A stretch of DNA of 32,000 nt from Candidatus Heimdallarchaeota archaeon (GCA_030668875.1 DAOVER010000022.1:24305-56304), one strand, 5' to 3'. Counted from the stretch's first letter, positions 1 through 20,170 are shown. Program-made: numbers and translations. The notes: generated by a model not told the origin, from the sequence alone.

Positions 1-954
1 GAAGATGTTTCAGAAATAAAACAGAACAATCTTGCAACATTTGAGAAAAACGCAGAGGAAATGAAGAATCAGCTTGAATCTAATATCAATATAACCGAGA
101 ACATAATGAAAGAGTCTATAGAACATCTTCGCTCTGAATATGGTGATAAACTTACAGATAATATGGAATCAATTTTTGAGAGTTTTAATAGAATAAAAAG
201 TGAACTAAGGCAACTAGTAGAGAACGCTGTTAAGAGAATACAGACAGAATTATCTGGAATTTCAGGAACTATGGATAAATACCTTATTGATGAAATCGCA
301 AAGATTCAAGAGGTTTTAGCAGAATATGAACTAGGTATGATTGATGTTAATGAAGTTGCTCTTTCTAACTTCAATGAATCCAAAGCATCAATGATCAGTA
401 TGTATGAGCAATTAGTCAAACAACAAATAGAATCTCATGGAAACGAACTGAAAACCTTTCAAGAAAATTTCAATAAAAATGCTGATGACGAATTAGTTTC
501 ATTTTCCAAACAATCAGATGAAGTGAAAGAAGAAACTAAGAATATCATTACTGCTGAAAAAAATGATATTAAACAAAAGTTAACTGAAATTCAAACAACA
601 GTAACAGAGGATGCTGCTAAAACTAAGGAAAAAGCTGAATCAGAAATTCTCCAAAAAATTACGCTGCTAGAAGAAGAAATCGAGAGATTAAAGGCTTCAA
701 TCGGTCAAACGAGCTCTCAAATCACAACTCAACTTGAGGCTAATGAAAGAGAGAATTTAGCAAATATTACTTCACAATCTTCCAAGATCAAAAGTCAAAT
801 AGCAGAGACACAGCAATCCATAATGACGGATTTAGATGTAGAAGCTAAAGAGCATGTTAAAAAGGCAGAAGATGCTGAGAAAAGAAAGCGAGATTTGATA
901 AATAGAATTGAAAGATTAGAAAGGAGTATAGAATCTATCAAAAATGAACTTTAA
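1..954 (+). CDS. C-terminal part of a long coiled-coil protein (5'-truncated by the window edge)
   Basis: The frame is open from base 1 (EDVSEIKQNN...), so the ATG at 61 is probably internal. The visible 317 codons contain no Pro, Cys or Trp, are E/K/Q/S-rich and show an 11-residue hydrophobic repeat. The stop at 952-954 lies 3 nt before the next ORF. Confidence 0.85.
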   Translation, partial: EDVSEIKQNNLATFEKNAEEMKNQLESNINITENIMKESIEHLRSEYGDKLTDNMESIFESFNRIKSELRQLVENAVKRIQTELSGISGTMDKYLIDEIAKIQEVLAEYELGMIDVNEVALSNFNESKASMISMYEQLVKQQIESHGNELKTFQENFNKNADDELVSFSKQSDEVKEETKNIITAEKNDIKQKLTEIQTTVTEDAAKTKEKAESEILQKITLLEEEIERLKASIGQTSSQITTQLEANERENLANITSQSSKIKSQIAETQQSIMTDLDVEAKEHVKKAEDAEKRKRDLINRIERLERSIESIKNEL

Positions 955-957
955 AAT

Positions 958-3900
958 GTGATAAAAATGGAATCAACATTAGAAAAAATAGGCTTATCGC
1001 AAGATGAAATTCAAGTTTATTCAACAGTAGTTCAATTTGGAACTAGAACCATTGGACAGATCCAATCCTATTATAAACAGTCTGCTGAAATTATTTCTTC
1101 TGCTTTGGATAGTTTAGTTACTAAAGGATACATAAAAGAAATTAAAGCTAGAAACACTGAGGGGACATCATATTTTATCCCATTACCTCCGCAAATTAAG
1201 CTGACTGAAGATGTATCAATGAGGCTTGAAAATGAGCTCAAAGCTTTAAGTGATGATGTGAAGAATGATTGGAATAACACTATGAAGACCTTTCGAGGTC
1301 AATTATCTACATTTCATAACCAAATAACAGAATCAACTGACAATCATAGTCAAGAGCTAAGTGGTATTTCAAATCAATTTCTGGATTCTGTTTCTGAAGT
1401 AGTAACAACTGGCAAAAACGATATTCAAGAAGCAATTACAAAGATTAAAACAGATACGGGAACCATTTCCACTACACACAGTGACAATCTGAAGAAATCT
1501 ATACAAAGAATCCAAGATAATATCTCTTCAACTTTTGATACAACAATTCATCGAGTTGGGGAGCATCATGAGAATTTTAAGACAAAGATTCAAGAAACAT
1601 ACACAAATCTAGAAACCGAACATACTGCAAGAGCACAAGGACAACTCGATGGTATAATAGAAAAAGTTGAAGGTATAAAAATTAACGTAAATACACTTCT
1701 TGAGCAGTTTAATTCAAAAGCAGACGAGAAAAAATCTCTGATTGTTGAAAATACAAGTGAGGTTAACAAGAAACTCATCAGTGATTCTAAACTAATAACC
1801 AAGGAATCAACAACAAAATCGATAGAAACAATTAACAAAATAGTTAGTGATTATCAAACTAATTTAGACGAATATCAGACAAAAGTAAAAAGCATTCTAT
1901 CTTCGTTAAATGAAGAGTTAAAGAAGTTGGAAGACCTAACCTCTAATAGAATTAAAGATGCCATTGAAAAAGCAAAGGATTCAGCAATATCTGTTTTAGG
2001 ACAAAATGAAACACAATTCCAAGATCTTTTGAGCAAAATTAAGACCCTGTCAGTCGAGAAACTTGGTGAATTAATCTCTCAAACTGAAACTACAACATCT
2101 GATATGAAAAATAAGCTCGTTGGGAACTTGAATGATTACCTGAATGATTTCGAGAAAAATAGTGATAGTCTATTAACACTTCTTCAAGAAGGGATAAATA
2201 GTGGTTTAACCCTCTTTGAGGATACTCTATCCAAATCCATTGAGAATGTAAGTGATCAGATAAAGACCTTCTTTGGAGAAATTATGGCTGATTTTGATGC
2301 GTTGAAATTATCTATAAATGAAGATTTACAAAAAAGTCTCACCGATTTTGTGAATTTATCATCAAGTCAAAAAGAAGATATGAACAAGAAAATCAAGGAA
2401 TTAAATTCATCTTTATCAACTTCTATTCAAGAATCTATTCAACAAAGTAACACAAAACTGACTGATGTTGCAACAGAGATAAGTACAGAAGCAGATAAAG
2501 CTTTAGCTTCTATAAAGAAAAAGGAACAAGCATCTCTCAAGAAACTTGAGACTGATGTTTTGGCAAACCAAGAAATAATGGTGACATTCTTATCTAATAC
2601 AATATCAACATTTGAGTTATCTTCATCAGAATATGTTACTGATATATCTTCAACTATTGATAAATATTCCAAAAAAATGAATGAGAGCAAGAAGCAGTTT
2701 ACATCCACTCACAAAGAGTTCAAAGAAAATTTCCTTGCTCATCTTAACGAACTTAAAACAACTGCTTTATCAGATATTAAAGAGAATATTGATGATAATA
2801 CAAATACAGTAAACAATTTCATGGATACTAAAAATGAGGAAATTAAAACAAGAATTGTATCATTTTCAGAAGATTTTGCTAAGAAAGGTAGAGACGTTAG
2901 AGATGAAGTACCTAACTTAGTTCAAATTAATTATCAATCAAGCTTGGAAAGTGTTCAAGAACTGGATGATCAATTTAAAACCGCGGTTGCCAAACTGACT
3001 GAAATTAATGAAGCCTTCCAAGATCTAGATCAGAAGCAATTACAGAAGGTTTTTGGAAAAGAAGCTGGCCCCCGAATGGCTCATTTAATCGGAACCATGA
3101 GTGCTGATGTTAATAATTTGAAGTATAATACGGAAAGTAAAATTGACGAAGTTATTAAGACATTCACTAGCTCAATGGAGAGTCTTTCAACAGACATTTT
3201 CAACAAAATGAATAATCATATAGACGAACTCTCTCAATTATCTGATTCAGAAGTAAAAGATATTAGTCAAAAAATAGAAGAAGCCAAAGGTGAGATTACA
3301 AATCAACTTAAAGAATCACTCAATAGCATGAAGGAACACGTCACTACTATTTTCACTACCTATGAAACTAGTTTTGCTGAATTACAAGATACCAATACTA
3401 AAGCTCTTGGAAGTATTGTTGGTAATGAGGATGATTCAATAAACTCTTTGAAGAGTAAGGTTGAGGAAGCAACAACTAATTTAACAAATCATATAACAGA
3501 AATCACCGCACCTGAAAAGGTTCAAGGTTTATATCAAGGACACATTGATACAGTAACAAAGAACTCTAATTCATTTGTTTCAGAAGTAGCAAAATTAATT
3601 GTTAATGAAAAAGAGAAAATTGATACATCCAAGAATACAATTCTTCAAACAATGAATGATTCTGAACAGGAAATGAGTAAAAAATTAGCTGATACTTCAA
3701 AGGAATTAGAAAAAACAAATAAGCTAATTACAGATAACGCTACCAACTCTTTCAAAGCAATTATAAACAAAACTGGTAAATATCTAGATGGACTGATACA
3801 AGCAGGAGAGACGATTTCAGATGATGAGGAAGGAGGCGTTGAGAAAACAAAAATGCAATTACTCATTGAAGAAGGATTGCAAGGATTGCTTTCATCTAAA

Positions 3901-5382
3901 GAAGAGATTTTCAGCATAATGCGAGCGAACAATGATGAAGTCATGCTAAAACTACAAGAGACGATTAAAATAAATATTGATGAACACTCAGCGCTTGTAA
4001 CAAATGTATCTTCTTCGATGGACAATAACATGAAAATCCTCCAATCAGAGTTTGAGGGGGCAAAAACTGCTTTAGATACTGATGTGTCCGTTACTCTAGA
4101 TGAAGCTTCAGCAAGTTATGGTCAACAAACAAAAGTAGTGGGTGATGAAATCCAAAATGTTGTTGATCAAGAAGTACAAGCGTTCTTGGAGAATTCAGAA
4201 GGTTTGTTAGCAGATTTAAGCGTTTCACCTGAAAAAGCATCATCACTAGATAATGCAATTAATAAAGCAAAAACAGAACTCAATAAAATTACTGAAGCTT
4301 ACCCCGAGTGGTTAGATGTTGATAACACTAAATATGCATCAGATCTTAATTCAGCAATAAGTGATTATCATACTCATGCACAAACAATTTTAGATGAATT
4401 ATACGAAGAAACTAGAAAAGACCTGGAAAAAGTCTATGCGAACATTTCAAGTGAATATGATAAAAGTATAACTTCTGTTGAAGAAGCATTTGAGAAAGAA
4501 GGCAATGACTTCAAGTTGAATGTTAGTCATCAAATTAATTCGCTAGTATCAAATTCAGATTCCAATTCTTCAGCTTTAGTGACAAATATCCAAAGTACAA
4601 AAGATTCGTTACTTGATGCTTCATCTTCAGTTCATGAGATAGTAGATGTAGATCTTAAAGGAGTTGAGAAAGCTGTTGAAGATATCTTTGAGACATTCAA
4701 TGGAGTTATAGTTGATAAAATGGAAAAAGCTTTGGAAAATTCTAAAGCATCTAAATCAACCAAAGAAGAATATGCATCAAAACTGCAAACATTCAAAGAA
4801 GAATTCATCTCAAATTCATTAAAGGAAATAGATAACGTAGATGTGAATATCACAGGTATTCTAAAATCAATCCCATCAAAGATCGACATTGTTTTGGAAG
4901 CTACAGGAGAATCAATGAAATTACTTAGAAGTGTTCTCAATTTAGGTAAGGGTGTTGAACCTGCCCCTATTGAAGACATCTGGCTAGTACATGGAAGAGA
5001 ACAAACATTTTCCACGATGATGTCACTTCTAAGGAATACAAAATCTTCTGCTACTATTATCAGTCCTGCTTTGAGCTGGATTGATGCTGAATTCTTAGAT
5101 ACTTATGGAAGGAAACTAGAAATAGTAACCAATACTACAACACATACTGAAGCCGATAATACTATCTTAGATAAGTTACTAGGAATGGGGAATGTCATAG
5201 TGAAAGATGACCATCAATTGACTGCTTATATGGGCACAAGAGATGGTATTGAGGAAGGATTTCTAGGACATACTACAGCATCTGGAGAACCTGTTTTAAT
5301 CGTAACTTTCAATGAAGATCTGGTTAAAGAAATAACTAAAATCTTTTATGAATTCAGAAGTAAAAAACAAATCAGAAAATAG
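958..5382 (+). CDS. Giant coiled-coil protein with N-terminal TrmB-type winged HTH and C-terminal TrmB effector-binding/PLD-like domain
   Basis: The N-terminus LEKIGLSQDEIQVYSTVVQFG...ALDSLVTKGYIKE...YFIPLPP matches the TrmB HTH pattern. The C-terminus IWLVHGREQTFSTMMSLLRNTKSSATIISP...RDG...FNEDLVKEITKIF matches the TrmB C-terminal pattern. About 1250 aa of helical sequence lies between them. The real start is probably ATG 967 (GTGAT upstream). Confidence 0.75.
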   Translation: MIKMESTLEKIGLSQDEIQVYSTVVQFGTRTIGQIQSYYKQSAEIISSALDSLVTKGYIKEIKARNTEGTSYFIPLPPQIKLTEDVSMRLENELKALSDDVKNDWNNTMKTFRGQLSTFHNQITESTDNHSQELSGISNQFLDSVSEVVTTGKNDIQEAITKIKTDTGTISTTHSDNLKKSIQRIQDNISSTFDTTIHRVGEHHENFKTKIQETYTNLETEHTARAQGQLDGIIEKVEGIKINVNTLLEQFNSKADEKKSLIVENTSEVNKKLISDSKLITKESTTKSIETINKIVSDYQTNLDEYQTKVKSILSSLNEELKKLEDLTSNRIKDAIEKAKDSAISVLGQNETQFQDLLSKIKTLSVEKLGELISQTETTTSDMKNKLVGNLNDYLNDFEKNSDSLLTLLQEGINSGLTLFEDTLSKSIENVSDQIKTFFGEIMADFDALKLSINEDLQKSLTDFVNLSSSQKEDMNKKIKELNSSLSTSIQESIQQSNTKLTDVATEISTEADKALASIKKKEQASLKKLETDVLANQEIMVTFLSNTISTFELSSSEYVTDISSTIDKYSKKMNESKKQFTSTHKEFKENFLAHLNELKTTALSDIKENIDDNTNTVNNFMDTKNEEIKTRIVSFSEDFAKKGRDVRDEVPNLVQINYQSSLESVQELDDQFKTAVAKLTEINEAFQDLDQKQLQKVFGKEAGPRMAHLIGTMSADVNNLKYNTESKIDEVIKTFTSSMESLSTDIFNKMNNHIDELSQLSDSEVKDISQKIEEAKGEITNQLKESLNSMKEHVTTIFTTYETSFAELQDTNTKALGSIVGNEDDSINSLKSKVEEATTNLTNHITEITAPEKVQGLYQGHIDTVTKNSNSFVSEVAKLIVNEKEKIDTSKNTILQTMNDSEQEMSKKLADTSKELEKTNKLITDNATNSFKAIINKTGKYLDGLIQAGETISDDEEGGVEKTKMQLLIEEGLQGLLSSKEEIFSIMRANNDEVMLKLQETIKINIDEHSALVTNVSSSMDNNMKILQSEFEGAKTALDTDVSVTLDEASASYGQQTKVVGDEIQNVVDQEVQAFLENSEGLLADLSVSPEKASSLDNAINKAKTELNKITEAYPEWLDVDNTKYASDLNSAISDYHTHAQTILDELYEETRKDLEKVYANISSEYDKSITSVEEAFEKEGNDFKLNVSHQINSLVSNSDSNSSALVTNIQSTKDSLLDASSSVHEIVDVDLKGVEKAVEDIFETFNGVIVDKMEKALENSKASKSTKEEYASKLQTFKEEFISNSLKEIDNVDVNITGILKSIPSKIDIVLEATGESMKLLRSVLNLGKGVEPAPIEDIWLVHGREQTFSTMMSLLRNTKSSATIISPALSWIDAEFLDTYGRKLEIVTNTTTHTEADNTILDKLLGMGNVIVKDDHQLTAYMGTRDGIEEGFLGHTTASGEPVLIVTFNEDLVKEITKIFYEFRSKKQIRK

Positions 5383-5464: not shown

Positions 5465-5839
5465 GTGCTAGTATTGTGGATAATGCAGCCATGTCCTTTA
5501 CACAAAGAAGTTGACAACGAAACCTACTGCATTCTGGATGACGAATTTGATGATGTTATACTAATTAACTTTTTACACCCATTAGATTTGCAAAAAATTG
5601 ACTTAAGTGAGTTTCAAAACCCATCATACTGCATTAATGCTGTGATAGCTGATGAAGAGGATTTTGTTTTCTGCCCTACAAAGAATAAAAGAATAAAGAT
5701 TGGAGATATGTCTATACCTCGCAAAATTTACATGAATGTGAGAGAAGTACTTCTATTTATGGATCCTGAAGCGCAAAGCTGTTCAGAATGTCTGTACAAA
5801 GCTTTAATTGCGATGAAAAAAAGTGTAGAAGGGTTGTAG
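5465..5839 (+). CDS. Small Cys-rich hypothetical protein, possibly metal-binding
   Basis: 124-codon ORF filling the gap up to the convergent GAPDH stop (4-nt gap). It has six Cys, including CPLH and CSEC. The start may be ATG 5483. Confidence 0.65.
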   Translation: MLVLWIMQPCPLHKEVDNETYCILDDEFDDVILINFLHPLDLQKIDLSEFQNPSYCINAVIADEEDFVFCPTKNKRIKIGDMSIPRKIYMNVREVLLFMDPEAQSCSECLYKALIAMKKSVEGL

Positions 5840-5843
5840 CTAA

Positions 5844-6851
5844 TTATTTACTAGCTACATAAAGAGCAAGATCTACCATTCTGTTTGAATAACCTGATTC
5901 ATTATCGTACCATGCGACAATTTTAACTTGATTTTTATGGCACATAGTTAAAGGTAAGTCCACTGTTGCTGATTGAGGTGCTCCATTGTAATCTATAGAA
6001 ACTAATGGTAAGCTAGAAACAGCTAAAATACCTTTTAGTTTACCTTTAGCAGCTTCTTTGAACATATTATTTATCTCATCAACAGATGTCTCTTTCTTCA
6101 ACGTGTAAATGGCATCAATTAAAGATACATTTGGAGTAGGAACACGAATGGAAATTGCTTGTAACTTACCGTCTAAATGTGGTAATACTATGCCTACTGC
6201 TGATGCAGCTCCTGTAGATGTAGGTATCATAGATAGAGTGGCTGATCTAGCTCTTCTCAAATCACTATGAGGAAGGTCAAGTAATCTCTGATCTGTGGTA
6301 TAAGAATGAATTGTGGTCATAAACCCTGATTCAACACCAAAATTATCATCCAGTAATTTGGTAATTGGTGCATAACAATTAGTTGTGCAACTTGCATTTG
6401 AAATCACCTTGTGTTCATCAGGATCAAACTGTTCTTCGTTTACACCAAGAACAAAAGTTGGTATAGGTTTAACCTTTCCTTTGTCTGGTGCAGAAATAAG
6501 AACATATTTTACTCCTCTCTCCATGTGCTTAGAAGCTAGTTCATATGTTCGGAAAATGCCTACACATTCAAAAACGATGTCGACTTTCCAATCATCCCAA
6601 GGAATATTCGCGGGGTCTCTTTCTTTTGAAATTGGTATTTCAACACCTTTAACAATAATTGAATTTTCAGTGTGGCTTACATCATGCGAGAAAATTTTGT
6701 GAACACTATCATACTTTAACAGATGCTGTAATGTGCCTGCATCTGTGATATCATTAATCCCTACAACTTCGATGTTTGGATTATCATAAGCGGCTCTAAA
6801 AATCCCTCTACCTATTCTTCCAAATCCATTGATTCCAACTCTTAAAACCAT
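5844..6851 (-). CDS. gap: Glyceraldehyde-3-phosphate dehydrogenase, class I (bacterial/eukaryotic type)
   Basis: GINGFGRIGR Rossmann motif, ASCTTNC catalytic motif, IPTSTGAA, RVPTPNVS, AWYDNE. ATG 6851 sits 5 nt after GGTGA (the track start GTG 6860 overlaps that motif). Confidence 0.97.
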   Translation of the reverse strand: MVLRVGINGFGRIGRGIFRAAYDNPNIEVVGINDITDAGTLQHLLKYDSVHKIFSHDVSHTENSIIVKGVEIPISKERDPANIPWDDWKVDIVFECVGIFRTYELASKHMERGVKYVLISAPDKGKVKPIPTFVLGVNEEQFDPDEHKVISNASCTTNCYAPITKLLDDNFGVESGFMTTIHSYTTDQRLLDLPHSDLRRARSATLSMIPTSTGAASAVGIVLPHLDGKLQAISIRVPTPNVSLIDAIYTLKKETSVDEINNMFKEAAKGKLKGILAVSSLPLVSIDYNGAPQSATVDLPLTMCHKNQVKIVAWYDNESGYSNRMVDLALYVASK

Positions 6852-6954
6852 ATTACTCACCAGTATTGAACTCTATTGTAAAAACTAGCATTTAAAATTT
6901 CCTACATCAATATGAGTGAGTAGTAAAAATAAAAGAAATAAAAGAAAAACATCC

Positions 6955-9219: not shown

Positions 9220-10452
9220 ATGTCAAAAGATAATGGTACACAATCTAAATTCTATCTTGATTTAGATAATAAATGGACGGCTCACAATTATAAACCCATA
9301 CCCGTTGTTGTTAAGAAAGCTAAGGGAATCTGGGTGTGGGATGTTGATGGTAAGAAATATATGGATTGTTTGAGCGCTTATTCAAGTCAAAATTTTGGAC
9401 ATGGAAATCCAAAATTGGTAAAATCACTGAAAAAACAATTGGATAAAGTGATTCTAACATCACGAGCATTTTGCAATGATGCAATGGGAACAGCTGCAAA
9501 GAAACTGTGTGAATTAACAGGATATGAAACATTTCTACCCATGAATACTGGTGCTGAAGCAGTTGAATCTGCATTGAAAATCGCTCGAAAATGGGGTTAT
9601 GAGAAAAAAGCTGTTGGAAAAGATAAGGCAGAGATTATAGTTTGTGAGAATAACTTTCACGGTAGAACTATTACAATTGTAGGATTTTCCACAGACCCAG
9701 ATGCTTATGATGGATTTGGACCAAAAACTCCTGGATTTAAGATTATTCCACATGGGGATGCAGAAGCATTAGAAAAAGCTATTACAAAGAATACTGTAGC
9801 ATTCATGTTTGAACCAATTCAAGGAGAAGCCGGTGTACTCATACCTCCTGAAGGTTATATTAAGAAAGTACAGAACATATGTAAGGAAAACAATGTTATC
9901 TTGATAGCTGATGAAATCCAAACTGGATTCTGTAGGACTGGGGAACTGTTAGCTTGTCAATATGAATCAGTAAAACCTGATATGACACTTGTTGCGAAAG
10001 CTGTTGGAGGAGGAGTTTTCCCTGTATCTGGTGTTTTATCTAACTGGGAGATTATGGATGTTCTTACTCCTGGTTCACATGGAAGTACTTGGGGTGGAAA
10101 CAGTGCAGGTATGGCTGTTTTAGAGGCTGTATGTGATCTTTTAGTTGAGGAAGATTTTGCACAGAAGTCAAACGATCTCGGTAAATTTTTCGTGGATGGT
10201 CTCAAAGAAATCCAGAAAAAATATCCAGAAAAAATCAAGGAAGTTCGTGGAAGAGGGTTGTTAATTGCTCTAGAACTTTCTGAGAAAGCTCGACCTTATA
10301 CTGAAGCATTAATGAACAATTCACCAATTGGAGTCTTAGCTAAAGAAACACATGAATTCTCTATACGTTTTGCTCCACCTTTAGTGATAACAAAGAAAGA
10401 TCTTCAGTGGGCTCTTAGCATTATTGACAAGGTTTTTGCTGAAGTAAATTAA
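9220..10452 (+). CDS. rocD: Ornithine aminotransferase (class III PLP-dependent aminotransferase)
   Basis: AHNYKPIPVV, YMDCLSAYS, MNTGAEAVE, NFHGRT, FEPIQGEAG, DEIQTG, PLP Lys in AKAVGGG, HGSTWGGN, IRFAPPL. ATG 9220 sits 5 nt after GGTGA. Substrate is assigned from motif similarity only. Confidence 0.88.
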   Translation: MSKDNGTQSKFYLDLDNKWTAHNYKPIPVVVKKAKGIWVWDVDGKKYMDCLSAYSSQNFGHGNPKLVKSLKKQLDKVILTSRAFCNDAMGTAAKKLCELTGYETFLPMNTGAEAVESALKIARKWGYEKKAVGKDKAEIIVCENNFHGRTITIVGFSTDPDAYDGFGPKTPGFKIIPHGDAEALEKAITKNTVAFMFEPIQGEAGVLIPPEGYIKKVQNICKENNVILIADEIQTGFCRTGELLACQYESVKPDMTLVAKAVGGGVFPVSGVLSNWEIMDVLTPGSHGSTWGGNSAGMAVLEAVCDLLVEEDFAQKSNDLGKFFVDGLKEIQKKYPEKIKEVRGRGLLIALELSEKARPYTEALMNNSPIGVLAKETHEFSIRFAPPLVITKKDLQWALSIIDKVFAEVN

Positions 10453-10455
10453 ACC

Positions 10456-10476
10456 TTCCTTTTTTCTTTTCTTTCT
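10456..10476 (+). terminator. T-rich terminator candidate
   Basis: ccttcctttttttctttttcttt-like pyrimidine tract directly after the rocD stop. Confidence 0.45.
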
Positions 10477-10699
10477 AGTATCTACAGTATGGATCTCTAG
10501 ACATTTTAATTATCTCTTCCTCATTCTGTAATATAATATAAGCTCTCTCAATGCATGTTGTGAAAATTTTTCTTTCTGGTTCGCGATAAATTCTTACTTG
10601 ATACATGGAATCGCTATGAGCGATAATCTCTCCAAACCTATGGATTAGTATAGCACTCTCGCTAGATTCAGAATTTGGTAGAATCTTTTGTATACCCAT
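10475..10699 (-). CDS. Small hypothetical protein
   Basis: 74-aa ORF that fills the gap between rocD and the exchanger without overlap. No family recognised. Confidence 0.5.
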   Translation of the reverse strand: MGIQKILPNSESSESAILIHRFGEIIAHSDSMYQVRIYREPERKIFTTCIERAYIILQNEEEIIKMSRDPYCRY

Positions 10700-12066: not shown

Positions 12067-15000
12067 TTAATCTTTTTCTTCTTCCTTCAAGAGATGTTTT
12101 CTAAGAATCTTCCTGAATTCTTCTGATTCTAGCCAACTTTCAGCTAGCTGCTTTGTAATAACTTCGATTTTTTCTGCTTCTTCAATGATCACTGTAGAGT
12201 GAAAACTATCTGCGAGTTCAGCAAAACCTATTATGCTCATTAATGGGTTTCTTATCCTATCTACTAGTGCGTCAAAATCTTGGATGTTTTGTTCAATACG
12301 AGTAAAAGCTTCAGTTCTAATCTTTTCTGCTTCCTTTCTTTCTGTTATGTCAGAGATTACACATACAATTGCATAAGGTATGTTATCTTTATCTGAGATT
12401 GTTGTGGCTCTAAGCTCTCCCGGATAACTACCACCATTTTTTTGTATAAATTCTAGCTCGATTATAGCAGATTTTCCATCCCTTAGTGTTTTATTGAAAT
12501 TTGATGCTGCTCTCTCTCTATCCTCAGATTTAATCATATCTAGTGAGTTAATACTAATCAGTTCATCGGGGTTAGTTGTACCGTACATCTCCGCAATTTG
12601 ACGATTAGCAACAATAATGTTGTTACCAATATCAGTTAGAATAATACCATCTGGAGACGTTTCTACTAATTTCCTATACCTTTCCTCGCTTTCCTGAATG
12701 TGTATTTCAGCTTGTTTGCGATAAGAAATATCTCTACCAATAGTCAAAATAACTTCTTCATCCATAAAATGGAAAAGATGTGAACTCAACTCTGTAGGTA
12801 TTCTGATACCATCTTTAGTAATCAAACTAGTTTCAAAAGTACCTGAACCTTGAGCAATAATCTCTCTAATGATTTTTGCGTTAGCTTCCACTTCTTCTGG
12901 CGCAGTAATATTGACAGATTTTAGTGTGAGGAGTTCTTCCTTTGTATAGTTTAATAACTCACATGCTATGTCGTTGACTTCGATAAACTCTGTTGTAGTC
13001 CCAAGGACTCTATTGACACGAGTTAGAAAAATACTGTCATTAGCATTATGGAATATCTGCCTAAACTTTTCTTCGCTTTCCATAAGCTCTTTTTCAGCAT
13101 TCTTTCTCTCTGTTATATCTCGGATGATTCCTTGAACAAATTTCACTCCTCTAATTTCAAATAAGCTGGATGAAACCTCAGCGGGAAAAATTGAGCCATC
13201 TTTGCGCTTGAAATTTATCTCATATTTTACATAACCTTCCTCTTGAATAATTTCAAACGCATTCTTGGAATCTTCTTGTTCAGTAACTGGATGTAATTGA
13301 TGAATGGTTAAAAGAAGCATCTCAGATTTTGAATATCCGACAAGTTCTCTAACTCTATAATTAACATCAATGATGTTGCCCTTAAGATTATAGAGAATAA
13401 TTCCATCGTTTGATCGATCAAAAGTTTGTCTGAATTTCTCTTCATTCTCTTTTAGTGCATCTATAGCTTTCTTTCTATCTGTAATGTCTTCAATAATTCC
13501 CATAATTGATCTGGGTTTGTCATTCTTATCGAGCAATAATGTAGCACTAAACTCTACTGGAAAACTTGTTCCATCCTTTTTAATCGCGTCAAAAAATATG
13601 TTCCTGACGCTACCTGTTGTTATTGTATCGTTAAGTGAATTTGTTACTATCTCAAAATCCTTTCGGGAAACGAAATCGATCGGTGTTAAACCTAACATTT
13701 CTTCTGTAGTCTTGTATCCAAACATAGCTGCAGATAGCTTATTTACAAACTGAAGTTTTCCTTCAATACTGAGAAGTATAATCGTATTTGTTGATGTTTC
13801 AATCAGAGTTCTGTATCTTTCCTCGCTCTCTTTAATTATCTCTTCTGCCTTTTTCCTATCTGTGATATCACTTGCGATAGATAAGATTACTTGTTCGTCT
13901 GCAAGGTCAAATAAGTGAGATCTTACCTCAACTGGAATCTGTTTTTTAGTTCTACTAGTAATTACTGTTTCAAATGCTTGTTTACCAGCAGTTAGTACTT
14001 CCTCACCTAGATGGAAAGAAAAGTATTTTTCTATTGTTTTATCTTCTTCTTCATAACTAGTTAAACCTAATAATTCCCCTCTAGAATAGCCTATCCATTG
14101 GCAAGCAGTATTATTAATCTCAATAAAATCACCAAGTTTAGTACCATTTTCAATTTTATTTATGAAAATTGCATCCTGTGCATTATGGAATATTTGCCTG
14201 AATTTCTCTTCACTTTCTTGTAGTTCTTCTTCTGCTTCTTTCCTATCCGTTATGTCTCTCGCAAAAGTAAGTACTACCTTTTCACCTTTTAAATGAAAAA
14301 TATGTGATTCCATTTCAGCTAGACGTTCTTTCCCATCCTTAGTTATAACAACTAAATCATAACTATGAGTCTCTTTTCTTATAATGTTTCGAAGAATTCC
14401 TAGATATTGAGCTGTAGACACATGAGCTGTTATGTCAATTGTATTTAGTTCTAGTAATTCTTCTCTTGTGTAACCAAGCCACTCACATGCAACATCATTG
14501 ATTTCAATAAACTGGCTTTTGGTCTCATTTTCTTCAAGTTTCGTTAGAAATATTGCGTCATTTGTTTTGTGAAAAATTTGCCTGAATTTTTCTTCATTCT
14601 CTTTTAGTTCTTCTTCTGCTTTCTTGCGTTCAGTGATGTCTCTGGCAATAGACAAAACAGCTTTTTCTCCTTTTAAATTGAATAACGTGGAGTGTATCTC
14701 TACAGGTATCAATTTATTGTCCTTTGAAATTAAAGACACCTCAAATGATGATTCTCCAGAAGACATTAGATTTTCAGAAATATTTTTCTCTATCTCTATT
14801 GGAGCTCGACGACTTATATCCCTTGATGTTTTGTTCATTAACTCCTCACGCGAGTAACCTGTCCACTGACATGCTAAATCATTTACTTCTATGAATTTTC
14901 CAAAATTTCCATCTTCATCAATCTTATGTATGAAAATTGCGTCTACAACACCATGGAAAATATGTCTGTATCTCTCTTCATTTTCCATTAATTCGATTTC

Positions 15001-15741
15001 AGCTATTTTACGCTCTGTAATCTCTCTAGTTAATTCTGCCATCCCAATTAATGTACCATCATCACCATATACGGGAAAACCTCTAATATACCATACTCTA
15101 CCATCAGGAGTTGTAACTTCAGAACTACTTTCTTTTCCAGTTTCTTTTGCAACTAATACAGGACATATGTCGCACGGTGTTTCTCTGTTGTGCCATAATT
15201 TGTAGCAATTTTGACCCACAATCTTATCAGCGCTAATGTTTATAGAGTCTGTTGCAGCTTTGTTAGCCCATAATATATTTAGATTAATATCGTGGAATAT
15301 AACGTGTTCAGAAAGAAAGTCTAAAAATCTCGATTTTTTAAATTCAGAAGCTAGGATTAATGTCTCTTTATGTTTCTCTTCTGTAATATCTTGAGTATAT
15401 ATTATCTGACCTACTCTTTCTCCCTCTTTTTCTATATCATGATATTGATTTCTAATATATTTTCTTGTTCCATCCTTCCTAATGACCCAGTATTCTAAGG
15501 TTTTCAAAGGAGTGCTGTTTTTTTTCGTTTCTTCAGAGATGTCTTCTAAGCTCTCAAGTTCCTTTGTAGTAGCAAACAGAAAAATGGAGTTTTCCATTAA
15601 TTCTTCAAGAGTATAACCTAGAATCTCTGTAAGTTGTTTATTAACATAAACTATTTTGCCAGCCTTGACTAAAGTAACGCCTTCTCTAATGTGATCAAAC
15701 AAATCTTTCATTTCATCACTTATCATGTTACCACTCTTCAT
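12067..15741 (-). CDS. Cytoplasmic multi-PAS sensor (9 PAS/PAC units) with C-terminal DHp-like helix and no HATPase domain
   Basis: Nine units of about 125 aa, each ending in a DIT/EIT/DIS-x-R/E-K linker. The tail reads VDRIRNPLMSIIGFAEL and the protein ends about 50 aa later. Confidence 0.92.
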   Translation of the reverse strand: MKSGNMISDEMKDLFDHIREGVTLVKAGKIVYVNKQLTEILGYTLEELMENSIFLFATTKELESLEDISEETKKNSTPLKTLEYWVIRKDGTRKYIRNQYHDIEKEGERVGQIIYTQDITEEKHKETLILASEFKKSRFLDFLSEHVIFHDINLNILWANKAATDSINISADKIVGQNCYKLWHNRETPCDICPVLVAKETGKESSSEVTTPDGRVWYIRGFPVYGDDGTLIGMAELTREITERKIAEIELMENEERYRHIFHGVVDAIFIHKIDEDGNFGKFIEVNDLACQWTGYSREELMNKTSRDISRRAPIEIEKNISENLMSSGESSFEVSLISKDNKLIPVEIHSTLFNLKGEKAVLSIARDITERKKAEEELKENEEKFRQIFHKTNDAIFLTKLEENETKSQFIEINDVACEWLGYTREELLELNTIDITAHVSTAQYLGILRNIIRKETHSYDLVVITKDGKERLAEMESHIFHLKGEKVVLTFARDITDRKEAEEELQESEEKFRQIFHNAQDAIFINKIENGTKLGDFIEINNTACQWIGYSRGELLGLTSYEEEDKTIEKYFSFHLGEEVLTAGKQAFETVITSRTKKQIPVEVRSHLFDLADEQVILSIASDITDRKKAEEIIKESEERYRTLIETSTNTIILLSIEGKLQFVNKLSAAMFGYKTTEEMLGLTPIDFVSRKDFEIVTNSLNDTITTGSVRNIFFDAIKKDGTSFPVEFSATLLLDKNDKPRSIMGIIEDITDRKKAIDALKENEEKFRQTFDRSNDGIILYNLKGNIIDVNYRVRELVGYSKSEMLLLTIHQLHPVTEQEDSKNAFEIIQEEGYVKYEINFKRKDGSIFPAEVSSSLFEIRGVKFVQGIIRDITERKNAEKELMESEEKFRQIFHNANDSIFLTRVNRVLGTTTEFIEVNDIACELLNYTKEELLTLKSVNITAPEEVEANAKIIREIIAQGSGTFETSLITKDGIRIPTELSSHLFHFMDEEVILTIGRDISYRKQAEIHIQESEERYRKLVETSPDGIILTDIGNNIIVANRQIAEMYGTTNPDELISINSLDMIKSEDRERAASNFNKTLRDGKSAIIELEFIQKNGGSYPGELRATTISDKDNIPYAIVCVISDITERKEAEKIRTEAFTRIEQNIQDFDALVDRIRNPLMSIIGFAELADSFHSTVIIEEAEKIEVITKQLAESWLESEEFRKILRKHLLKEEEKD

Positions 15742-15897: not shown

Positions 15898-17010
15898 CTA
15901 AACTCGTCTATGTTTTTCATCAAATATGTAAATATCATCAGAGCGCACAATTATTGCTATTGAATCTTTCTTAGAAAATCTCTTTCTTGTTTTCGTAACA
16001 TAAAAAATCTGCTCTCCTAGATAGTTTAAAGTTAAAATTTGTTGATCTAGAACCTTCTCTACATCCTCAACTTTACACTCAAGTTTGAACATATCTTTGT
16101 CGATTGGTTTCCTTGGATCAAACTCTCTAATTATTTCTGCCCTAAAACCAAGAGTCCCCTTTTCAATACCTTTACTACGAATGTATTTGAACACTTTTTC
16201 AGATAGAACTTCTTTCATATCTACCGTAAGTTTGCATTTATTCTTCTCAACTATAAATGAAAGGAAATTCATTGGGTAATTTCCAATAAATTGAGCAACA
16301 AATTTAGAATTAGGGTCATAATACAGCTCATCTGGCGAACCTACTTGTACTATCTTTCCATCCTCTAGAAGAACTATCATATCTCCTAGTGCCATAGCCT
16401 CGGATTGGTCATGGGTTACATAAATCATGGTTTTGTTAAGTAGCTCATGCAGTTTTCTTATCCACATTCTCATTTCATATCGTAATCTTGCATCGACGTT
16501 ACTAAGAGGTTCATCAAAGAGAAAAACATCAGGTTCACGAACAAGTTCTCTCCCTATTGCAACCCTCTGTTTTTCACCACCTGAAAGTTGTGAAGGATAT
16601 TTCTCTCTGTGTTCTTCTATATGCAAAAGAGAGGAGATGTCATCAACTTTTTTTTCAATTTCTTCTTCCGAGTAAACATTTACTCTAAACAATTTACCTT
16701 TCTTCTTACTTTCCAATGGAAATCTCAGATTTTCAACAACAGTCATATGTGGGAACAAAGGGTAATTTTGGAAAACCATTGCTACATTTCTCTTATTTGC
16801 TGGATTATCAGTAACAATTGTATTATCAAACAGAACTTCTCCTGAAGTTGGATATAATAATCCCGCAATTAGTCGTAGTATTGTTGTTTTTCCACTTCCT
16901 GAAGGACCTAGAATGATTGTGATTTTTCCTTCTGGAAATATTATACTTGCATCTTTAAGGGCAGTCTTTCTTCCATATTTCTTTGTTAGTTTTTCAATTT
17001 CAACTTTCAA
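15898..17010 (-). CDS. Sugar ABC transporter ATP-binding subunit (MalK-like)
   Basis: GPSGSGKT, LSGGEKQR, LFDEPLSN, YVTHDQ and a C-terminal TOBE-like region. The probable start is TTG 17010, after GGAG and 1 nt past the permease stop. Confidence 0.93.
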   Translation of the reverse strand: MKVEIEKLTKKYGRKTALKDASIIFPEGKITIILGPSGSGKTTILRLIAGLLYPTSGEVLFDNTIVTDNPANKRNVAMVFQNYPLFPHMTVVENLRFPLESKKKGKLFRVNVYSEEEIEKKVDDISSLLHIEEHREKYPSQLSGGEKQRVAIGRELVREPDVFLFDEPLSNVDARLRYEMRMWIRKLHELLNKTMIYVTHDQSEAMALGDMIVLLEDGKIVQVGSPDELYYDPNSKFVAQFIGNYPMNFLSFIVEKNKCKLTVDMKEVLSEKVFKYIRSKGIEKGTLGFRAEIIREFDPRKPIDKDMFKLECKVEDVEKVLDQQILTLNYLGEQIFYVTKTRKRFSKKDSIAIIVRSDDIYIFDEKHRRV

Positions 17011-17011
17011 C

Positions 17012-20000
17012 TTATAGATCTCCTCTTTGTATATGATAATTTGCACCTTTAAGCAGATAATTTTTTAGAAAAATGAACATAATTATCATTGGTATCATCA
17101 CCAATAATGATGCTGCAGCAAACATGCCCCATTCGGGTGAACTTGTCTCAATAGACCCTAGAAAAGTATACAGTTTTATTGGTAAAGTATACCGCAAGGG
17201 TGATTGCAACAGAACAAATGCTAATAGAAAACCATTCCAAGCTGTGAGGAAGTTAAGCAGGAAAGCTACAGCAATCGCTGGTCCCGCTAAAGGGAACACA
17301 ACCTTTCTTAGAACCCTTAAAGTGGAATTTCCCATTAATAAAGCTGATTCATCCAACTCTTTTGGAATTGAATCCATATAACCTTTAATTATCCATAATC
17401 CTAGAGGTATTGTTTGCGTACTATACGCCAAAATTACCCCAATGTAATTATCAATTAAACCTAAATTGAACATGATAAGATAGAGGGGAATCAGTGTTAA
17501 TATCCCAGTAAACATTTTCATAATAAAAACGCCCACCATTAGCTGCTTCTTTACTTTGAATCTGTATCTAGAAAATGCGTAAGCTGCTAATACTGTTAAC
17601 AGTATGCAAAATGTTGCTGATCCTAGAGAAACTAACAATGAATTCCCAAAATGTAGAAGGATATTCTCTTGTGTAAATAGAAGCACAAAATTGTTAAGAG
17701 TCGGATTGCTCGGGAAAAAATTAGTTGGAACAACAGTGTTTGAAGGTGAAAATGCAATCCAAAATATATTCCATATAGGAATAAATGCGATTAAGGAAAA
17801 AGATAATAGAGTTACAGAACTATTAATAGGAAAAGATAGAAAAGAATAAATTCCCCTTTGGAACTCCCCTATCTTCCGCTTGTCTAATTGTTTTTGAATA
17901 TAGTTAATTATAAAGACCAATGACACAATTACATGAATGATTTTCCAACCTATAGGTTCCCATGCAAAGCCTAAACCTATCCAAATTATGGGTTGGAGAA
18001 GAACAGAAAACTTAGTAAAACTTTGTGAGAATATCGAAGAAAATATGACTAATATGTTTAATCCAAAAATAGTCCACATTAACCAGAAACTGGAACCAAG
18101 AATAAGATTAGAAACGAGTAAAATGGAAGCCTGAACAACCAAAACGAGATGGATTGTATTTAGATCTATTAATTTTGTATCTATCCTTTGAAGTGTTGTA
18201 ACTACTGTTTTCCTTGTATACTGAGCTATTTTTCTTAATTTATTAAGAACGAAATTAGAATTGAATTTCTCTCGTGGAATGTTAGCTATGATGAAAAATT
18301 CTACCGCAACTACAAAAATATTCCAGTTAAAAGCAAACCACATTTGGAACAAGAAGAATTGAGTTAAAGAGAAAATCAAATCCACAACCAATAACAGCTT
18401 AAGCCCCGTTGAACTCTGATTAGGTTTCCAAATAAATAACAAGCCAACTATGGCAAAAAGTGACCCCATTATATAGCTAAGAACTGGATTCCAATGGTAT
18501 CCAAAGTATCTAAATCCTACAACACCTGAAACTATGTATCCTATTGCTTGAATTGTAAGAAAAGTTGGAATAATAATTTTATAGTTTCTTCTCTTCTTTA
18601 TCTCTGATGGTTGAAAAGAACTTTCTGTTCCTTTTGACATTTTTATCCAAACTAAAACGAAGAATAAAGTAAGAATACTCATTATGGTTGAATAAGCAGC
18701 AGCTATTCCTACATCTCTCCTCTGATAAAACATGTAAAATGTGAAAGTACTGAAAAGATCTGTTGCTCCAATAATACCCGCTTCATTCATACCATAAGGT
18801 AGTAAAGGATAACCGCTCGTAAAGAGAAAAGCAACATTGAAACTTCCAAAGGTTTTGATAATCTCTAAAATTATAGCTGGTAGAATAATTGGTTTGATGA
18901 GAGGTATAATTATCCTCCTAATACTTGTTCTTTCAGAGATTTGATCTACTTTGGCGATATCACTCAATTCTTTAGGAATACTACTTAGACCTCCAAGAAA
19001 CAATGTAGTTATAAGAGGGATAGAATCCCAAACTTCTACAAAACAAGCTAGAAGAAGAGCAACATATGGTTGATTCATTAGATTCACATTTGTACCTAAT
19101 AGTAAATTGAATAATGATTCTCCTCCACTCCCCTGTATGAATGTTCTCCAAGATAAAATCTTGATATAGGTAGGGATAACCCATGGGAGGTAGAGAAGGA
19201 GATACCATACTTTCTTTCGTTTAACTTTGTAATGAATGAGATATGCTAAAACAAAGCCTAGGAATATCTTCAGAAAAATAATAACTGTACTCCAAACCAA
19301 AGTTGTTGTGAATGCAATTGGTAATTGAGGATTGTTCGTAATATGGATATAATTTTCTAGCCAATTAAATTGTGGAATCTCTCCTCTTCTAAGATTGTAG
19401 GATGTAAAGGATAACACAATACCATATAACATAGGATATACTTCTAGCAAAACAAGAGCAAAAAGAGCTGGAAAGATAAACACATATGCAACTCTATTGA
19501 AAGGAACATCTATCTTTGCTATGATTACAAAAATAATAATGAAAATCAGAATAATTGCTAGTATGGTTATCGTAGTTGCAGTCCTGGAATATTTCAGCGC
19601 TTCATCTATACTTTGTAGCGTGGTAAACTCCTCTGTTATCCAGAAAGATACCTCCTCTTCTACGAGCAAAATACTGAAATCGTTATTTATAACAAGTGAT
19701 GAATTTGTAGAGTATATTTGTATCTGATAAGGATTAGTTGTTTTCAACCCATTTATCTTCACTTGGATTGACTTTGTATTAGTGGGAACAATGAAATAGG
19801 TAAAATTCAGTGAAAATTCCTTCTTCGAATAAAAGATTTCACCATGTGAATCGGTGTAATTCACAAGGTTTACTTGATTAATATGATTCAGGTACATAGT
19901 TGAATTAATTTGTATAACTGACCAAGTTTGAGAAAGATTTAGTGAACTGTCGAAAACTTCTATCCTAAAACCACTAAACGTATAATTTTCTTGAACAGTC

Positions 20001-20170
20001 CAGTTTAAAACTACAAAGCGATCTCCGATTTCAACAATGTGGTGATTAGTTTCTTGAGCTGTTACAAAACCGATTTTTGTTTGTTCATTTTCACTTGCAC
20101 TCATGCTAAGGGCTATTACGATTAGAAATACAGTAATTCTAACAGTAATTTTCCTTTTCTTCCTTTGCAC
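17012..20170 (-). CDS. Fused MalF-like + MalG-like carbohydrate ABC permease with extra N-terminal and central domains
   Basis: MalF-like core (YVFIFPAL...YPMLYGIVLSFT...SIPKELSDIAKVDQ) and MalG-like core (NSLLVSLGS...AAYAFSRYRF...SIPKELDESALLMG) in one 1052-aa frame. GTG start 8 nt after GAGGT. Confidence 0.9.
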   Translation of the reverse strand: MQRKKRKITVRITVFLIVIALSMSASENEQTKIGFVTAQETNHHIVEIGDRFVVLNWTVQENYTFSGFRIEVFDSSLNLSQTWSVIQINSTMYLNHINQVNLVNYTDSHGEIFYSKKEFSLNFTYFIVPTNTKSIQVKINGLKTTNPYQIQIYSTNSSLVINNDFSILLVEEEVSFWITEEFTTLQSIDEALKYSRTATTITILAIILIFIIIFVIIAKIDVPFNRVAYVFIFPALFALVLLEVYPMLYGIVLSFTSYNLRRGEIPQFNWLENYIHITNNPQLPIAFTTTLVWSTVIIFLKIFLGFVLAYLIHYKVKRKKVWYLLLYLPWVIPTYIKILSWRTFIQGSGGESLFNLLLGTNVNLMNQPYVALLLACFVEVWDSIPLITTLFLGGLSSIPKELSDIAKVDQISERTSIRRIIIPLIKPIILPAIILEIIKTFGSFNVAFLFTSGYPLLPYGMNEAGIIGATDLFSTFTFYMFYQRRDVGIAAAYSTIMSILTLFFVLVWIKMSKGTESSFQPSEIKKRRNYKIIIPTFLTIQAIGYIVSGVVGFRYFGYHWNPVLSYIMGSLFAIVGLLFIWKPNQSSTGLKLLLVVDLIFSLTQFFLFQMWFAFNWNIFVVAVEFFIIANIPREKFNSNFVLNKLRKIAQYTRKTVVTTLQRIDTKLIDLNTIHLVLVVQASILLVSNLILGSSFWLMWTIFGLNILVIFSSIFSQSFTKFSVLLQPIIWIGLGFAWEPIGWKIIHVIVSLVFIINYIQKQLDKRKIGEFQRGIYSFLSFPINSSVTLLSFSLIAFIPIWNIFWIAFSPSNTVVPTNFFPSNPTLNNFVLLFTQENILLHFGNSLLVSLGSATFCILLTVLAAYAFSRYRFKVKKQLMVGVFIMKMFTGILTLIPLYLIMFNLGLIDNYIGVILAYSTQTIPLGLWIIKGYMDSIPKELDESALLMGNSTLRVLRKVVFPLAGPAIAVAFLLNFLTAWNGFLLAFVLLQSPLRYTLPIKLYTFLGSIETSSPEWGMFAAASLLVMIPMIIMFIFLKNYLLKGANYHIQRGDL

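Follow-up and report, generated by a model that had tools for sequence, protein, structure and literature searches.

TrmBL2 associates with the nucleoid, forms filaments and also stalls SMC (PMC11840125). In TrmBL2 of Thermococcales (5bqt, 5bpd, 5bpi and 5box) and in TrmB (3qph and 2f5t), a winged helix-turn-helix (wHTH) is connected to a C-terminal domain of PLD-like fold by a single helix only a few tens of residues long, and TrmBL2 lacks a sugar-binding beta-barrel subdomain. Here, we analyzed a 32,000-nucleotide stretch of DNA from Candidatus Heimdallarchaeota archaeon (GCA_030668875.1, DAOVER010000022.1:24305-56304; hereafter the window, meaning the whole stretch), which encodes a protein, P0001, with the same wHTH, C-terminal fold and joining helix and, as in TrmBL2, no beta-barrel. 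Unlike in TrmBL2 and TrmB, the linker of P0001 comprises about 1,257 residues in two matched arms, its gene is encoded together with an ATPase and a second coil protein, and its family was found in Asgard archaea only. We propose, and regard it as probable, that P0001 is a TrmBL2-like protein whose linker has grown into antiparallel-paired arms of 11-residue (hendecad) repeats, probably forming a hairpin of about 92 nm, and that it serves as a DNA-anchored spacer or tether within an ATPase operon.

The rod of P0001 also invites comparison with proteins built on long coils. As in SMC, Rad50 and MukB, a long fold-back coil would join the termini, the arms co-vary in length, the predicted tip is conserved, discontinuities are mirrored between the arms (a ‘joint’), and association with DNA is probable. 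SMC and Rad50 have an ABC-type ATPase head split between the termini (Walker A at the N-terminus, Walker B and the signature motif at the C-terminus); P0001 has no such head and no matches to SMC_N, AAA or ABC profiles, its termini are a wHTH and a PLD-like domain, and the ATPase is a separate protein of the AAA_16/STAND type. Unlike SMC, the repeat is hendecad rather than heptad, and the apex consists of a roughly 16-residue break (KVFGKEAGPRMAHLIG) in place of a hinge domain or zinc hook; a CxxC zinc hook is excluded because P0001 contains no cysteine.

For the cytoplasmic hairpin of bacterial chemoreceptors (MCPs), length classes were reportedly described by Alexander and Zhulin in 2007. 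The rod family resembles the MCPs in that length classes arise through symmetric paired insertions or deletions (indels) and in having a conserved tip, which in MCPs is the partner-binding site; however, MCPs are non-homologous membrane receptors with heptads and hairpins of 20–30 nm, whereas the indels of the rod family comprise some 105–410 residues per arm. An 11/3 periodicity with an a/d/e/h core over very long stretches is shared with Scy/FilP of Streptomyces, tetrabrachion and the peripheral stalk of A/V-ATPases, but Scy/FilP and other hendecad coils are parallel and have no DNA-binding head, whereas the halves of the rod are coupled in antiparallel fashion. Apolipoproteins A1, A4 and E (PF01442) and the ZorA tail share the 11-residue amphipathic periodicity, although the rod has neither the MotA/ExbB membrane domain of ZorA nor Pro-punctuated 22-mers. 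An earlier interpretation of the gene, made from the DNA alone and referred to below as the sequence-only reading, knew of no characterised example; likewise, we found no paper describing the family in the literature on Asgard, TrmB, coiled coil, hendecad or apolipoprotein.

Length-matched arms around a conserved break

Between the head domains, 1,257 residues (82–1338) form the rod. Fourier analysis of hydrophobicity over residues 79–1330 gave a single sharp peak at 3.66 residues with a power of 398, whereas the maxima of 200 shuffled sequences averaged 63 and did not exceed 134, and an observed power of only 2.2 at 3.5 residues; the repeat is therefore hendecad and not heptad, far above chance. 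The hydrophobic core occupies positions 0, 3, 4 and 7 of the 11, i.e., a, d, e and h, and the rod is strongly acidic with a net charge of −81. These results agree with the sequence-only reading, which had expected a period of 3.67 over 3.5 and had described about 1,250 residues of hendecad coil within a TrmB-like protein, an architecture that is real and conserved across the family. Its finer observations were reproduced as well: residues 79–651 are free of proline (prolines are found at 75, 77, 78, 652, 705, 852, 1091, 1116, 1306 and later positions), and residues 11 apart in nucleotides 2128–2403 (residues 391–482) read F,L,F,V,I,I,F,M at offset 7 and L,S,I,L,I,F,L,S,I at offset 0.

A sliding-window analysis of family-averaged hydrophobicity shows that the hendecad phase stays at about −100° (±25°) over residues 80–690. 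The register then jumps at residues 690–700, coinciding with KVFGKEAGPRMAHLIG, where the conserved Gly/Pro break KVFGKEAGP (residues 697–705) divides the rod into arms of 618 and 639 residues.

The evidence that the two arms are coupled comes, first, from paired changes in length. The 24 close relatives aligned fall into two length classes, of which the short class (about 1257 residues; 15–16 clusters) differs by exactly two deletions, of 106 and 104 residues, and the mirror point of their boundaries falls at residues 693–694, beside the break at 697–712. The long form of about 1480 residues is the rule in the family’s other genera and in the order, and the short form occurs in the window’s genus only; the short form therefore arose through two matched deletions. 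Larger losses are paired in like manner: compared with the close relative P0065 (1533 residues), P0085 (1091 residues) has lost 220 residues in the N-arm and 218 in the C-arm, and P0069 (714 residues) has lost 405 and 411, respectively, while in both the head and the base of the C-arm are retained, as is the apex together with about 85 flanking residues per side. We also considered whether the paired indels might be units of a tandem, spectrin-like module of about 105 residues, but self-similarity gave 11/3-helix lags only and no long period.

Second, we analyzed arm lengths across the family. A hidden Markov model (HMM) of the apex, built on K-x-[VAL]-[FLS]-G-K and free to match anywhere in each protein, gave significant matches in 38 proteins of 12 length classes, every one near the middle of the rod. 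In this set, the N-arm and C-arm lengths, ranging from 242/261 to 800/811 residues, correlate with r = 0.997 and a slope of 0.98, and the C-arm exceeds the N-arm by a constant 20 ± 7.5 residues. In an alignment-free scan, 45 of 74 proteins showed a register break at 0.5 ± 0.025 of the rod length, whereas random placement in 5000 simulations gave a mean of 14.1 and a maximum of 26 proteins; since the 74 proteins are mutually related, the contrast with the simulations does not amount to a formal probability. An N-arm of exactly 618 residues is common to the Heimdall long class and to proteins from further Asgard lineages that have less than 30% identity to one another, which suggests selection on length itself.

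Third, conservation is mirrored. In the short class, which is free of indels, the correlation of mirrored variability peaks at residues 590–592, with the motif glycine at 591 (r = 0.47–0.56; the next-best mirror point reached 0.29–0.36, and the best translational offset 0.41), and in the whole family, variability in 22-residue bins gives a mirror correlation of r = 0.73. In these bins, conserved islands at residues 192–213 and 1189–1210 mirror each other, as do conserved zones at 302–433 and 969–1100, and the roughly 85 residues on each side of the apex belong to the best-conserved regions of the rod. The N-arm island (residues 186–215) has an entropy of 0.88 (0.70 for the bin 192–213) relative to a rod mean of 1.31; no stretch of the entire rod is more conserved than the C-arm island (residues 1187–1216), which lies about 139 residues from the base. 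The two islands may form a joint or a binding site. The C-arm island lies beside the register break near residue 1220, in a dip of the hendecad amplitude.

Mirrored coupling of this kind bears on the possibility that P0001 is a parallel, homodimeric and extended filament former with the wHTH at one end and the C-terminal domain at the other. TrmB-family proteins do dimerise via a parallel helix after the wHTH, and the hendecad periodicity is as in Scy/FilP. However, a parallel filament predicts no coupling between the N- and C-terminal halves and the mirror-symmetric coupling argues against it, and the translational correlation of conservation (i to i + T) is weaker than the mirror correlation; we therefore give this alternative very little credence. 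The same features argue against a protein that adsorbs to lipid or membrane surfaces by amphipathic 11-mers, in the manner of apolipoprotein, perilipin or synuclein, and connects DNA with membranes or lipid bodies. Amphipathic helices that bind lipid typically show an 11/3 periodicity, and the Apolipoprotein profile PF01442 matches P0001 in seven stretches with 84.2 bits; but this score is under the gathering threshold of 90, the Pro-punctuated 22-mers are absent, the rod charge of −81 is unfavorable, and matched arms, mirrored islands and a conserved tip fit helix-helix pairing and not a surface-adsorbed helix. We consider such a role decidedly improbable, and the lipid-binding option raised by the sequence-only reading comes down to a sub-threshold Pfam match produced by the 11-residue periodicity and nothing else. 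Matches to the ZorA tail (PADLOC/NCBIfam; 24 bits against a cut-off of 190) cover the tail coil only; they and the apolipoprotein match reflect periodicity and not homology. Identities as ZorA, LmuB or Baculo_PEP_C were rejected, the matches being confined to coil regions.

Based on these observations, antiparallel pairing of the arms is a well supported prediction, in which residue i would face residue ~1402 − i. The pairing could occur within one chain or between two, an ambiguity that was once debated for SMC proteins. In the second case, extended chains of about 185 nm would form an antiparallel dimer, head to tail, with the wHTH of one chain beside the C-terminal domain of the other at each end, creating a two-headed DNA-DNA bridge. 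The paired indels, the arm correlation and the mirrored conservation fit this arrangement equally well, with residue i facing ~1402 − i of the other chain. It has no need, however, of a conserved Gly/Pro break and register shift at the dyad, as seen in 45 of 74 proteins; the roughly 85 residues on each side of the apex are highly conserved, as a structured tip would be; and the secondary structure in a low-confidence AlphaFold2 model of P0069 puts a loop (residues 317–322) at the apex motif. The extended dimer thus appears unlikely, and an intramolecular hairpin is the most likely form, favored by the conserved helix-breaking motif at the dyad together with the conserved flanking residues.

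For the hairpin, a rod of about 92 nm is estimated (618 × 0.1485 nm), compared with about 76 nm for the short form and about 36–119 nm in other lineages. The order of 100 nm suggested in the sequence-only reading was thus the right scale. The TrmB domains, however, probably do not lie at opposite ends of the rod, as the arms are length-matched around the mid-rod break and both domains would lie at one end, which is also their arrangement in canonical TrmB and TrmBL2. The features are collected in Table 1.

Table 1. Features of the rod gene and its partner gene, in window coordinates.
Feature	Position	Strand	Residues	Basis or remarks
P0026, hendecad partner gene, 3' part	1..954	+	482 in full-length protein	Starts 494 nt before the window; stop 3 nt before GTG 958
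P0001, TrmB-headed hendecad rod protein gene	958..5382	+	1474	Candidate starts GTG 958 and ATG 967
TrmB-type winged helix-turn-helix	979..1179	+	8–74	Pfam PF01978
N-arm	1201..3054	+	82–699 (618)	Hendecad phase, positional profile; ~56 repeats, unbroken register
N-arm conserved island, contains TIHRVGEHHENFK	1513..1602	+	186–215	Entropy; ~119 residues from rod base
N-arm segment missing from short relatives	2287..2604	+	444–549 (106)	MAFFT alignment of 24 family members
Apex break KVFGKEAGPRMAHLIG	3046..3093	+	697–712	Register shift, conserved motif; G700, G704, P705, G712
C-arm	3094..4971	+	713–1338	Register breaks; ~5 hendecad segments
C-arm segment missing from the same short relatives	3472..3783	+	839–942 (104)	MAFFT alignment; mirror of 444–549
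C-arm conserved island, contains SLVSNSDSNSSALVTN	4516..4605	+	1187–1216	Entropy 0.48; mirror of 186–215
C-terminal PLD-like domain, TrmBL2/TrmB type	4972..5379	+	1339–1474 (136)	AlphaFold2 model, Foldseek, PF11495 in distant relatives

The head and its relation to TrmBL2

The sequence-only reading had placed a wHTH at residues 1–78 and a TrmB-type domain from about residue 1335, and had called for a profile check of both termini. For the N-terminus, the check bears it out: PF01978 matches with 33.1 bits in the whole protein and 37.7 bits in residues 1–110 alone, above the gathering score of 25.6. The C-terminal domain itself has no sequence match in Pfam, and a profile search of PDB sequences gave nothing meaningful; its assignment as TrmB-type stands, with a start near residue 1339, on the basis of fold and of distant relatives. 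An AlphaFold2 model (alignment A1, 22 sequences) has a predicted local distance difference test (pLDDT) value of 83–94 over the globular part, and its best Foldseek matches are TrmBL2 (5bqt, 5bpd and 5box; E = 1e-9), followed by the TrmB sugar-binding domain (2f5t; 7.5e-7) and TrmB (3qph; 2.6e-6), with further matches to PLD-fold proteins such as Nuc and Zucchini. Distant family members match Regulator_TrmB (PF11495) directly, e.g., P0131 with 29.6 bits against a threshold of 22.2.

These PF11495 matches span profile positions 3–138 of 233 only. The beta-barrel sugar-binding subdomain, at about positions 140–233, is absent, and P0001 stops 136 residues past the start of the domain. A motif check showed that the HxK(x)4D motif is also absent from the C-terminal domain. 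Since the sugar-binding barrel is missing, the head is predicted to be TrmBL2-like, i.e., a wHTH and an inactive PLD-like domain, as judged by profile matches and the structural model. A complex prediction for residues 1–160 and 1250–1474 (alignments A3 and A4) returned a score of 0.02 and is counted neither for nor against an association of the two domains.

The operon, its neighbors and the distribution of the family

The rod gene closes a compact run of three genes in the order P0027, P0026, P0001. P0027, which ends 10 nucleotides before P0026, encodes a 591-residue AAA_16 ATPase (PF13191; 37.2 bits, threshold 32.6). The sequence-only reading was right that the rod itself has no ATPase motifs and is not an SMC, but it overlooked this ATPase and the second hendecad gene directly upstream. 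The ATPase-partner-rod order, with gaps of 0–14 nucleotides and otherwise unrelated flanking genes, is kept across several Asgard lineages, with sizes of 572/770/1812 residues in Freyarchaeota, 575/717/1719 in Promethearchaeota and 567/433/1479 in an ENA contig; the cassette also occurs in eight further genomes and in Heimdall relatives. At three loci, the ATPase is followed directly by the rod. At another locus (L070, G226:C11), an ATPase homologue lies downstream of the rod (open reading frame (ORF) 9344–10654, + strand) and a hendecad partner was not seen upstream; the gene order of the system is therefore not fixed.

In 19 ATPase homologues, the Walker A motif GxxGxGK/R[ST]S and a Walker B motif with D[N/D], not DE, are conserved. 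With D[N/D] in place of DE, the enzyme would suit a nucleotide switch more than a fast motor. The language-model neighbors of P0027 are AAA_16 and TPR proteins, and we take a TPR-type tail as a lead only. The partner P0026 has a Fourier peak at 3.66 residues in a single register and no mid-rod break; with one uninterrupted register, the partner proteins resemble a single long helix. Membrane segments are absent from all three proteins. Two further ideas about the partner were rejected. A role as a ruler for arm length is at odds with partner classes of about 425–485 or 717–773 residues that are independent of rod length (in L074, for example, a 770-residue partner accompanies arms of about 470 residues), and homology between partner and rod is not convincing, as the BLASTP match (E = 0.003, 24% identity) amounts to coil-like similarity only.

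Directly downstream of the rod gene, on the opposite strand, lies a GAPDH gene (Gp_dh_N and Gp_dh_C; 5844–6860, −), a neighborhood kept in the Heimdall relatives L003, L004 and L006 and not in other Asgard lineages. As TrmB regulators control sugar metabolism, P0001 might be an ordinary TrmB-type transcription factor of nearby genes such as GAPDH, with the rod as an oversized oligomerisation or sensing module. The presence of a TrmB wHTH and of the TrmB-type effector-domain fold, and the adjoining GAPDH gene in Heimdall relatives, agree with such a regulator. However, the beta-barrel sugar-binding subdomain is missing, the GAPDH neighborhood is not kept outside Heimdall, where the ATPase and coil genes are, and an N-arm of 618 residues retained across lineages at low identity suggests that length is selected; we rate this alternative as improbable. 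In line with the sequence-only reading, P0001 would be an organiser or linker rather than a regulator.

An ORF of 124 residues with six cysteines and no family match (5465–5839, +) lies just after the rod gene and has a counterpart of 121 residues in L003 and L006 and of 94 residues in L004; it was left out of the cassette because it is kept in Heimdall relatives only. Farther downstream, the gene at 12067–15741 (−) encodes a 1224-residue protein made almost entirely of PAS domains (nine PAS_9 stretches), in which Pfam detected no output domain (kinase, GGDEF or other). An ABC ATPase gene (15898–17046, −) overlaps a permease gene (17012–20170, −) whose 1052-residue product has two BPD_transp_1 stretches at the C-terminal end only, the first ~850 residues being without a Pfam match.

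The window lies within a 56-kb contig of a metagenome-assembled genome of 3.2 Mb that is 92% complete. Database copies of the rod protein have 1471 residues, starting at ATG 967, compared with 1474 residues from GTG 958. The database proteins nearest to it carry the label Candidatus Heimdallarchaeaceae or Heimdallarchaeota, and family members are named ‘helix-turn-helix domain-containing protein’ or ‘hypothetical protein’ and nothing else. A profile of the C-terminal domain found 119 proteins among 1.84 billion representative proteins. Nearly all matches of at least 600 residues (669–1812 residues) have a Fourier peak at 3.62–3.70, and about two thirds of them have a recognisable TrmB wHTH; the shorter matches are mostly fragments. 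All named members are from Asgard archaea (Heimdall, Promethearchaeota (Loki), Thor, Hel, Hod and Frey).

The survey of distribution and neighborhood proposed with the sequence-only reading yielded both the cassette described above and a wide occurrence in Asgard: the rod family was found in 158 of 399 Asgard-phylum genomes (~40%), representing 56 of 85 genera, and in 38 of 89 high-quality genomes (~43%). A search of genome contigs gave close Heimdall relatives only, and the wider family came from the genome search. Rod proteins rank among the largest proteins of their genomes. Several Asgard genomes hold 2–4 paralogues (e.g., G011, G012 and G014, which belong to the same family, and G040, G045, G126 and G396), typically one of about 1480 residues and one of about 670–860 residues; the window’s own genome shows one rod.

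Proposed working and meaning

In the arrangement that we favor, the short inter-domain helix of TrmBL2 would have been replaced by two matched hendecad arms of 618 and 639 residues, which would pair antiparallel and turn at KVFGKEAGP to form an acidic rod of about 92 nm. The wHTH and the PLD-like domain would then sit together at the rod base, with the conserved tip at the far end. The head would anchor the rod on DNA, as in TrmBL2, and the rod would act as a spacer of fixed length, with the conserved tip and the joint as possible contact sites for partner proteins or for a second rod. Such a system would hold chromosomal DNA at a defined spacing, by tethering or bridging it, instead of exerting gene-specific, sugar-responsive regulation.

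Several observations weigh against this proposal. With regard to geometry, mirror symmetry alone does not tell a hairpin within one chain from two extended chains paired as an antiparallel dimer; the mid-rod register break is undetectable in about 29 of the 74 proteins; and AlphaFold2 modeling of full-length P0069 (alignment A2) reached a pLDDT of 53 and a predicted TM-score (pTM) of 0.28, too low for the tertiary arrangement. The C-arm of P0001 has about five register breaks (near residues 850, 945–975, 1085–1116 and 1220, as judged by the sliding-window analysis) and the N-arm has none, so that the arms would not pack as a simple, uniform two-helix coil. The 1256-residue rod ORF L076 (G063:C1:662772-673576), closely related to P0065, is without the wHTH and 287 N-arm residues and shows no corresponding loss in its C-arm, an unbalanced exception among the matched arms; gene degradation, a misplaced start or a headless form of the protein could each account for it. 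With regard to function, DNA binding by the head is suggested through homology, and the net charge of the wHTH is 0. Many rods of the family stand alone, without ATPase or partner, and the cassette is therefore not obligatory for the rod. Finally, no RNA run containing the stretch was among the sequencing runs found, which were DNA runs from marine sediment only and may be where the assembly came from, and no protein-level evidence for the rod was found.

A wider interpretation, which we put forward tentatively and consider possible but doubtful, is that the three genes encode an Asgard-specific chromosome-organising machine unrelated to SMC. Its rigid stalk, of 36–120 nm depending on the lineage and fixed to DNA through the TrmBL2-like head, would be engaged at the conserved tip and joint by the long single-helix partner and the nucleotide-switch STAND ATPase, giving regulated bridging between DNA segments or between DNA and a cell structure.

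What appears new is a protein of the TrmB/TrmBL2 family with a probable SMC-like fold-back geometry, and the set of three genes taken together may merit further attention. In addition, the family is a clean natural resource for studying how hendecad antiparallel coiled coils evolve through paired indels. The combination of a chromatin-protein head with a stalk of fixed length, kept to the residue at less than 30% identity in the case of the N-arm, implies selection on a physical distance. Chromosome organisation in Asgard archaea, and the connection of their DNA to the cell, are little known and bear on the origin of eukaryotic nuclear organisation; if the wider interpretation is true, the closest prokaryotic relatives of eukaryotes would possess a DNA-anchored coiled-coil tether.

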